DNA of 64,000 nucleotides from Escherichia coli (GCF_003334305.1 NZ_QOWS01000015.1), one strand, 5' to 3'. Counted from the first letter of the stretch, positions 57,639-58,073 are shown. Made by a program: numbers and translations. Notes: generated by a model from the sequence alone, not told the origin.

Positions 57639-58073
57639 GGTATGCCGTCCTTTCGTTTTTTAGCACAGGTTAAGAGCCGTTCATATGAATAGTAGAGGCT
57701 CCCGGAAGAGGTAAACTGAACGACGTCTCTTGCTAAAACACAGCAACTCTCATGCCATTTTATCGACGATGAGAACAACGTGCCCGGTGATACACCTTCA
57801 AAATTAAGCGTAGATGGCAAATGGAAAACTTGCCTGCACGGCTTTCTTAATTTCAATGGCATATCAACAACTCATCCATAAATTTTGCATAATTAATGTA
57901 AAGACCAGGGTAGCCAGTAACGCTAAATTCATTTGGCTGTAAGCGCGGTGTCATCCGCGTCAGGAAAATTAAACAGTTACTTTAAAAAATGAAAACGTAA
58001 AAAGGTTGGGTTTCGATGTATTGACGGGTAAACTTTGTCGCCCGCTAAACATTTGTTTAAGGAATGATTAATT

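Follow-up and report, generated by a model that had tools for sequence, protein, structure and literature searches.

Regulatory architecture of the divergent yeaG-mipA spacer of Escherichia coli, with a possible remote NtrC enhancer beyond mipA

The 435-bp gap between yeaG and the outer-membrane gene mipA of Escherichia coli, analysed here within a 64,000-nt stretch of genomic DNA (the window), can be identified with a probability of about 0.9 as a region that is already known together with its main parts, namely the divergent regulatory region of yeaGH and mipA. What sequence comparison adds is a lead to a remote NtrC enhancer for yeaG, together with two conserved and unexplained elements, a block termed block A and an array of phased Pho-like repeats. 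The yeaGH stress-kinase operon controls how cells survive long nitrogen starvation and how they recover from it, and it represents a textbook-level case of stress integration, in which RpoS, sigma-54/NtrC and the sRNA SdsR converge.

The gap is an exact non-coding spacer. It is bordered by a minus-strand ORF of 644 aa (55704-57638), which gives an equivalog-level match to the PrkA/YeaG kinase (1342 bits), and by a plus-strand ORF of 248 aa with a GTG start (58074-58820); RefSeq annotates this ORF pair in E. coli genomes as yeaG and mipA. Each of the 5426 complete E. coli genomes contains an 835-bp stretch around the gap, with at least 99% identity in 4157. Among 80 retrieved yeaG loci, mipA is the divergent neighbour in 27 sampled Enterobacterales species, a set from which Salmonella, Klebsiella, Proteus and Hafnia are absent, and the gap in these species measures ~390-630 bp, usually 390-460 bp. 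For the counts of invariant columns, an alignment of 14 Enterobacteriaceae was thinned to 10 genus-level lineages (Table 1). The segment 57881-57994 evolves fast, showing 79% identity between two E. coli lineages compared to 97% for the yeaG-proximal 242 bp. Beyond Enterobacteriaceae, the sigma-S -10 element, the core of block A and the sigma-54 motif were found again, with examples in Serratia, Dickeya, Erwinia, Pantoea and others.

Within the gap, the sole long ORF encodes 75 aa (57635-57862); it begins inside block A, and its ATG is located upstream of both yeaG transcription starts. Stop codons break its frame in other genera, after 13-64 codons in 11 of 13 other lineages, and in Pluralibacter the ATG is replaced by AAG; outside this strain, the frame is open only in a second E. 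coli lineage. The ORF was rejected as a gene because it is not conserved, and the gap can therefore be regarded as truly non-coding, which agrees, together with the exact ORF bounds, with the original prediction of a large non-coding region between divergent genes. It is highly improbable that the conserved blocks are explained by a hidden gene, be it the 75-aa ORF, a small RNA or Salmonella STM14_1559. The ORF does exist in this strain, and a Salmonella hypothetical ORF with RpoS-dependent reads is annotated in the yeaG 5′ non-coding region; however, these reads are accounted for by the 161-nt leader, an Rfam scan of 57300-58400 matched no family even at E ≤ 1, and both the position of the ATG and the interrupted frame argue against the ORF.

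Table 1. Features of the yeaG-mipA spacer and of the region beyond mipA, in window positions; invariant columns are counted over 10 genus-level lineages.
Feature	Positions	Strand	Invariant columns	Remarks
Whole yeaG-mipA intergenic region	57639..58073	.		435 bp
Last 17 nt before yeaG ATG			16/17	
yeaG Shine-Dalgarno AAGGA	57648..57652	-		Sequence and conservation
SdsR sRNA pairing site CCTGTGCTAA	57660..57669	-		-31 to -22 from AUG; published
Leader hairpin (predicted)	57672..57703	-	Arms, about 15/19	Arms GGGAGCC (57703-57697) and GGCTCTT (57678-57672); per-species folds
93-nt leader of sigma-54 transcript	57639..57731	-		Predicted TSS; distance 93 in Bonocora 2015
Sigma-54 promoter TGGCATGAGAGTTGCT	57742..57757	-	8/16	GG at -25/-24, GC at -13/-12; motif scan, conservation, published ChIP-seq
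Mapped yeaG TSS, sigma-S promoter	57799	-		Kim 2012 supplement: 1864771, 56 reads; 161-nt leader
Sigma-S type extended -10 TCTACGCTTAA	57804..57814	-	9/11	
-35/spacer block of sigma-S promoter, GCAAGTTTTCCATTTGCCA	57815..57833	-	11/19	
Block A, GGATGAGTTGTTGATATGCCATTGAAAT	57850..57877	-	24/28	
PhoB site per Yang 2012, TTGCATAATTAATGTAAA	57885..57902	+	0/18	Offsets -180.5 and -255.5 map to 57893.5
11-bp-phased Pho-box-like direct repeats	57926..57954	+ (mipA sense)		AATTCAT / CTGTAAG / GTGTCAT
mipA sigma-70 core promoter	58006..58034	+	-35, 4/6; -10, 5/6	-35 TTGGGT 58006-58011, -10 TAAACT 58029-58034; placed from mapped TSS
mipA TSS and 34-nt leader	58040..58073	+		Kim 2012: 1864530, 26 reads; Shine-Dalgarno AAGGAA 58059-58064
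NtrC-type palindrome, site a, TGCATCTTTCCAGGGCA	58824..58840	.		3 mismatches; 4 nt after mipA stop
mipA intrinsic terminator hairpin ACAGGGCG-TCA-CGCCCTGT	58855..58876	+		Followed by U run; lies between sites a and c
NtrC-type palindrome, site c, TGCATTACGGTGGTGCA	58876..58892	.		1 mismatch to TGCACYNNNNTGGTGCA

The pattern TGGCAY-N5-TTGCW is matched just once in the 64-kb window, by the sigma-54 promoter of yeaG, with 0.27 matches expected by chance; the GG and GC dinucleotides of this promoter are 10 nt apart, as the sigma-54 -24/-12 class requires. The original prediction had reported no clear sigma-54 element in the gap; TGGCATGAGAGTTGCT was overlooked because it is on the opposite strand and reads TGGCAT (T for C) and TTGCT (T for A). 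It is identical to the sigma-54 ChIP-seq site OS18, 93 nt from yeaG (Bonocora 2015), and the same motif was found at Salmonella yeaG, where ChIP-chip and DctD250 activation were reported (Samuels 2013). NtrC and RNAP ChIP-seq signals at yeaGH, as well as NtrC-dependent induction, have also been published. The motif is conserved in 23 of the 27 Enterobacterales loci with mipA adjoining yeaG, at 94-242 nt upstream of the yeaG ATG, and is found in Escherichia, Citrobacter, Enterobacter, Kosakonia, Serratia, Dickeya, Erwinia, Pantoea and others; among the loci compared, it is missing upstream of yeaG in Yersinia, Edwardsiella and Vibrionaceae. From the spacing of the GC at -13/-12, the TSS could be placed at ~57731, giving a leader of 93 nt. 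No start is present at this position in the Kim 2012 TSS set, and a -93 yeaG construct was used in an SdsR reporter (McQuail 2023; PMC10954441).

The sigma-54 promoter at 57757-57742 is switched on by NtrC in nitrogen starvation, with a predicted start near 57731. It resembles glnAp2 of E. coli, which is also an NtrC-activated TGGCAY-N5-TTGCW -24/-12 promoter responding to nitrogen starvation, and both are in tandem with a second promoter using another sigma factor (for glnAp2, the upstream sigma-70 promoter glnAp1). Two strong NtrC dyads are located at about -140 and -108 of glnAp2, whereas yeaG has no NtrC dyads within 340 bp upstream, and the partner promoter of yeaG is RpoS-dependent and upstream, rather than repressed by NtrC. 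Like glmY, glmZ and rpoH of Salmonella and E. coli, yeaG stays expressed in an rpoN mutant, due to further promoters in the same fragment (Samuels 2013). Compared to these three genes, the starts in yeaG are 68 bp apart, with the sigma-54 promoter lying within the sigma-S leader.

An RpoS-dependent promoter with its start at 57799, which is the upstream one of the two starts, reads leftward in tandem with the sigma-54 promoter. Its element TCTACGCTTAA is a near-consensus fit to the RpoS-type extended -10, which in the work of Weber and Hengge is reportedly of the KCTAYRCTTAA type with C at -13. Counted from the final base of the TACGCT hexamer, the start is 8 nt downstream, with 7 nt between; the -10 is also given as TCTACGCT. 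In Kim 2012, the sequence upstream of this start ends ...GCCATCTACGCTTAATTTTG (also given as ...CCATCTACGCTTAATTTTG). The sigma assignment of the 57799 start rests on published rpoS dependence: reviews state it for E. coli yeaG, Salmonella yeaG shows 5730 reads in the wild type versus 26 in an rpoS deletion, and a review describes two adjacently placed yeaGH promoters that are sigma-54- and sigma-38-dependent. An Lrp ChIP signal has been reported at yeaG as well. The conservation of the -35/spacer block exceeds what a bare -35 needs, and the block may therefore overlap a factor site. Other Enterobacterales have a CTAYRCTT motif at the corresponding position, where Vibrionaceae have an element of the CTAGTCTTA type; Edwardsiella keeps a -10-like element (CTAAGCTT) but not the sigma-54 motif. 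Since Vibrionaceae and Aeromonas keep the sigma-S-like -10 alone, the RpoS promoter of yeaG looks ancestral, and the sigma-54 promoter looks like an Enterobacterales addition.

The idea that the gap holds one simple sigma-70 promoter per gene, its length being a neutral spacer, is already refuted and has next to no chance of being right. Although the Kim 2012 set shows a single TSS for each gene and the central 57881-57994 evolves fast, yeaG has a sigma-54 ChIP-seq site with a conserved motif and a conserved sigma-S -10 with published rpoS dependence, block A is nearly invariant, and the gap length is maintained throughout the order. Several promoters responding to stationary phase and nitrogen starvation had been predicted, and this is borne out by the sigma-S promoter with its mapped TSS and by the sigma-54 ChIP-seq site. 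A single sigma-70 promoter per gene without additional blocks, named as the finding that would speak against that prediction, is not what the gap contains, given two yeaG promoters and strongly conserved additional blocks.

Searching 57639-58073 for the NtrC consensus TGCACYNNNNTGGTGCA with up to 3 mismatches gave no match; the best matches in the gap have at least 4 mismatches, and weaker NtrC-like sites there are not conserved in position among relatives. The NtrC sites expected in the gap are thus absent in their canonical form, and so is an upstream activating sequence at ~80-200 bp upstream, which is typical of sigma-54 promoters but not strictly defining. Matches to the 17-bp dyad TGCACCA-N3-TGGTGCA were found outside the gap alone, at sites a and c beyond mipA. 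An NtrC enhancer comprises at least two dyads on one helical face, which nucleate the oligomer; these two are in phase, 52 bp apart, and site c is ~1.15 kb upstream of the yeaG sigma-54 TSS. Serratia grimesii likewise has a pair of 2-mismatch dyads 52 bp apart (positions 1231 and 1283). The intervening mipA terminator was not called by a simple terminator scan but is supported by folding (-23.6 kcal/mol, z = -4.07). In gSELEX, an NtrC peak at 1,863,654, corresponding to window ~58916, was obtained in the mipA/yeaE spacer whether or not RpoN holoenzyme was added to NtrC, and a yeaE spacer probe was shifted in gels by NtrC and by RpoN holoenzyme (Shimada 2021). The same study has no NtrC or RpoN gSELEX peak in the yeaG-mipA spacer and never mentions yeaG. 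With neither a canonical NtrC site nor a gSELEX peak in the gap, more than one route of NtrC activation may be considered.

One tentative route, which we rate at somewhat less than an even chance, is that the dyads at 58824-58840 and 58876-58892, ~1.10-1.15 kb upstream, act as a remote enhancer driving the sigma-54 promoter of yeaG, so that the nearest sites with in-vitro NtrC binding, 1.1 kb upstream, would supply the enhancer. The whole divergent mipA gene and its promoter would sit within the activation loop. This arrangement would be shared by genera from Escherichia to Serratia and Dickeya, and it would partly account for the retention of mipA-yeaG synteny and spacing in all lineages with the sigma-54 promoter. 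Of the 23 loci with the yeaG sigma-54 motif, 19 carry an NtrC-type site (up to 4 mismatches) within 100 nt after the mipA stop, mostly 4-5 nt or 56-61 nt past it, compared to none of the four loci that lack the motif (two Yersinia, Edwardsiella and Pseudocitrobacter); the one-sided Fisher p of ~0.004 for this co-occurrence ignores phylogeny and uses a threshold picked after the data were seen. At relA, NtrC binds far from the gene that it activates, as the bound probe spans -928 to -592 from the RelA start codon (Brown 2014), showing that natural NtrC sites can be distant in E. coli. Unlike at relA, the candidate sites for yeaG are separated from the promoter by a whole divergent gene and its promoter. 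A literature search returned no paper joining yeaG, yeaE and NtrC and none joining yeaG with ChIP-exo.

Alternatively, NtrC could act from weak non-consensus sites in the gap, such as the half-site-bearing GTGCAGGCAAGTTTTCCA around -95 or a GGGCAC around -50, in the usual promoter-proximal layout, and the palindromes beyond mipA would be irrelevant to yeaG. We consider this possible but doubtful. Most NtrC enhancers are located 100-200 bp upstream, as at glnAp2, and this counts in its favour. In addition, the NtrC ChIP-seq window for yeaGH (1864821-1864901, corresponding to window 57749-57669) is on the promoter, no separate peak near mipA/yeaE is listed (Brown 2014), and the ChIP enrichment is modest, 12-fold compared to 40-94 for strong targets, as weak sites would give. 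However, the poor and positionally unconserved matches in the gap speak against local sites, as does the finding that the gSELEX NtrC peak is in the mipA/yeaE spacer and not in the yeaG-mipA spacer. Moreover, the windows of Brown 2014 generally mark promoters rather than enhancers: at astC, the ChIP window (1830021-1830101) overlies the sigma-54 motif at 1830087, with the gSELEX NtrC peak at 1,830,436, ~350 bp upstream, and at glnA the window is over the 5′ end, with a gSELEX peak at 4,056,244. As the windows are promoter-centred, as seen at astC, the yeaGH window does not locate the enhancer. The glnA gSELEX peak falls at what we take to be the enhancer location.

The palindromes at 58824-58892 could instead regulate downstream yeaE, unconnected with yeaG, as in the assignment of the gSELEX peak by Shimada 2021. 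This seems unlikely, even though the shifted probe carries the yeaE spacer, yeaE mRNA rises 3.1-fold on nitrogen depletion but not in rpoN or ntrC mutants, and a weak yeaE TSS (3 reads) lies directly after site c. A sigma-54-like motif within reach of yeaE was not found, the best candidates matching 6-8 of 12 positions, and, apart from the yeaG site, published sigma-54 ChIP-seq lists nothing from 1.860 to 1.867 Mb. Furthermore, of the 8 sigma-54-positive loci without yeaE, in which mipA and yeaD converge and hence no promoter can be in that spacer, 7 retain the palindromes at an unchanged position; the palindromes are missing in all four lineages without the yeaG sigma-54 motif. No credible sigma-54 promoter motif was found for yeaE or in the antisense direction of mipA, nor is one present in published ChIP-seq. 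A role in yeaE regulation and a remote enhancer for yeaG are not mutually exclusive. The literature is inconsistent on the position of NtrC, which is at the promoter in ChIP-seq and solely beyond mipA in gSELEX, and a conserved natural remote enhancer would reconcile the two. If true, it would be a rare natural case in which an enhancer of an enteric bacterium acts over a kilobase and across another gene, and the yeaE target of NtrC would be reassigned.

Both yeaGH transcripts share a conserved leader that carries a predicted stem-loop (57703-57672), the SdsR/Hfq site (57669-57660) and the ribosome-binding site; translation is thus turned down late in starvation. The SdsR site was validated by a GFP reporter with a compensatory mutation (McQuail 2023; PMC10954441). 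When 20 leaders from 14 genera were folded singly, all of them closed a stem equivalent to GGGAGCC/GGCUCUU just 5′ of the SdsR site, with a loop of 18 nt in E. coli and from 10 nt (Erwinia psidii) to ~160 nt (Brenneria) elsewhere; in Dickeya and Brenneria the stem is longer on both arms. Applied to 16 leaders aligned with MAFFT, RNAalifold missed this stem because the 3′ arms were misaligned, and it returned just an invariant 6-pair CUGUGCU/AGGACGG helix with zero covariation. A second, hairpin-only alignment was out of register for Serratia. The E. coli leader alone folds no better than shuffled sequence (z = -0.01). Since the alignments did not recover the leader stem-loop, it is given as a qualitative observation, its structure being a predicted one.

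Block A, 28 bp long, is the most conserved untranscribed element of the gap, spanning -51 to -78 of the sigma-S TSS and lying outside any conserved ORF. Its core, GTYATTGAWAT, is recognisable in Serratia, Dickeya, Erwinia, Pantoea and Edwardsiella, and it recurs with an A-tract beyond Enterobacteriaceae, the Edwardsiella copy being degraded (GTGCTTGAAAT). Comparison by eye with the consensus sequences of IHF, FNR/CRP, ArcA, Fur, Lrp, OmpR, PhoP, CpxR, TorR, Zur and the GAD box gave none that fits across genera. The only resemblances seen in block A were a TTGAT half-site and a Pho-box-like score, which reaches 18/24 and is lower in E. coli; all of these comparisons serve as leads rather than as tests. 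Most likely, block A would be an upstream factor site, or an alpha-CTD contact plus factor site, for the sigma-S promoter. It may be the site of an as yet unassigned regulator, which would feed into an operon that is among the most strongly RpoS-dependent.

On the other side of the gap, mipA is read rightward from one mapped sigma-70 promoter with its start at 58040. Both hexamers are conserved, and an A-tract is located just upstream of the core promoter. A simple sigma-70 scan gave two matches, no more than chance, one of them inside yeaG; the match at 57864-57893 (+) was rejected, as it is not conserved and has no TSS. A PhoB ChIP-chip peak, EMSA and a phoB-dependent reporter have been described for mipA (Yang 2012), and RegulonDB includes mipA among the PhoB targets. 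This binding is disputed: PhoB ChIP-seq of higher resolution gave no site between yeaC and yoaI, with the argument that peaks unique to Yang are mostly not genuine (Fitzgerald 2023), and PhoB ChIP-exo recovered phoBR and pst alone.

The whole window was also scored with a 7-4-7 Pho box consensus. The top match, CTGTCATCAAACTGCCAT (50296-50313), is a ChIP-seq-verified PhoB site upstream of yoaI and serves as a positive control. CTGTAAGCGCGGTGTCAT (57937-57954) reaches 19/24 and is preceded by a third phased unit, and scores of at least 19 occur at just 4 of ~128,000 positions over both strands. Matches of at least 17 in the mipA sense are present in 14 of 14 Enterobacteriaceae, often as three overlapping boxes offset by 11 bp, and their centres are 120-152 nt upstream of the mipA start; in a window of that size, a match of this kind arises by chance with a probability of ~0.02. 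By comparison of the sequences, the phased repeats are a conserved feature that is distinct from, and better conserved than, the published PhoB motif call. A GC-rich inverted repeat at ~57945-57960 was dropped as a structure, since its register shifts between E. coli lineages and E. albertii.

The mipA repeats share with the Pho boxes of pstS, phoA and yoaI the CTGTCAT-like 7-bp direct repeats with an 11-bp period, but they score below the yoaI box (19 compared to 21.5 of 24) and are not detected in PhoB ChIP-seq. Furthermore, classical Pho boxes replace the -35, whereas the mipA array, lying 86-114 bp upstream of the transcription start, ends at 57954, 86 nt from the TSS at 58040, and does not abut the -35. 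The classical -35-replacing PhoB mechanism therefore does not fit. Alternatively, the repeats may serve a different regulator of the OmpR/PhoB type, or mipA may have a further, unmapped promoter upstream. The phased repeats would be the likeliest basis of the reported induction of mipA in low phosphate, the mipA promoter being in use as a leaky low-phosphate-inducible part.

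The mipA–yeaE spacer (window 58824-58892) contains a pair of NtrC-type palindromes, 52 bp apart, that flank the mipA terminator, and this pair coincides with a published NtrC gSELEX peak, there assigned to yeaE. In the sequence comparison, the position of the palindromes is kept from Escherichia to Serratia and Dickeya, including genomes without yeaE, and their occurrence past mipA goes together with that of the yeaG sigma-54 promoter. The published yeaE transcription start site (58893), which is weak (3 reads) and gives a 17-nt leader, is the first base after the downstream palindrome, site c. 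Judged from these positions, NtrC bound to site c would span -17 to -1 of the weak yeaE promoter, so that repression of this promoter rather than activation would be expected.

The 435-bp yeaG–mipA gap includes a divergence hotspot within Escherichia in its middle (57881-57994), where two E. coli lineages share 79% identity and identity to E. albertii is 75%, compared to 91-97% in the flanks. Phased TGTCAT-like repeats inside this segment are retained despite the divergence around them. At the yeaG sigma-54 promoter, the sequence directly adjoining the -24 element, TCGATAAAAT, is similar in sequence to the high-affinity motif of H-NS, TCGATAAATT. In Pantoea and Erwinia, a comparable CGATAAAA precedes the sigma-54 motif.

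The yeaG leader contains a predicted stem-loop directly 5′ of the published SdsR pairing site, with arms conserved across genera and a loop ranging in length from 10 to about 160 nt; within Enterobacteriaceae, the loop CTCTACTATTCATATGAAC is largely invariant too. A -10-like TACTAT lies inside this loop. In Salmonella LT2, yeaG expression independent of sigma-54 and RpoS has been reported, to which the TACTAT might be related. In E. coli strain 789 (NZ_CP010315.1), an avian septicaemia isolate, the hairpin loop is interrupted by an IS1 element and yeaG is annotated as frameshifted, so that the operon appears to be inactivated in this strain.

Elsewhere in the window, the top Pho-box match is located ~50 nt upstream of the yoaI ORF (34 aa, ATG at 50364). 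It is a PhoB site confirmed by ChIP-seq (Fitzgerald 2023) and served as the positive control of Pho-box scoring.

Sequence features in and around the yeaG–mipA region and elsewhere in the window
Feature	Sequence	Window position	Strand	Remark
NtrC-type palindrome	CGCACTGCCATGGTGCA	14373-14389	+	1 mismatch; second 1-mismatch site in window
Top Pho-box match	CTGTCATCAAACTGCCAT	50296-50313	+	score 21.5/24 (7-4-7 PhoB-site consensus)
Conserved yeaG leader stem-loop		57672-57703	-	
IS1 insertion point, strain 789	GAATAGTAG	equivalent of 57687-57695		9-bp target duplication
H-NS-like motif	TCGATAAAAT	57757-57766	-
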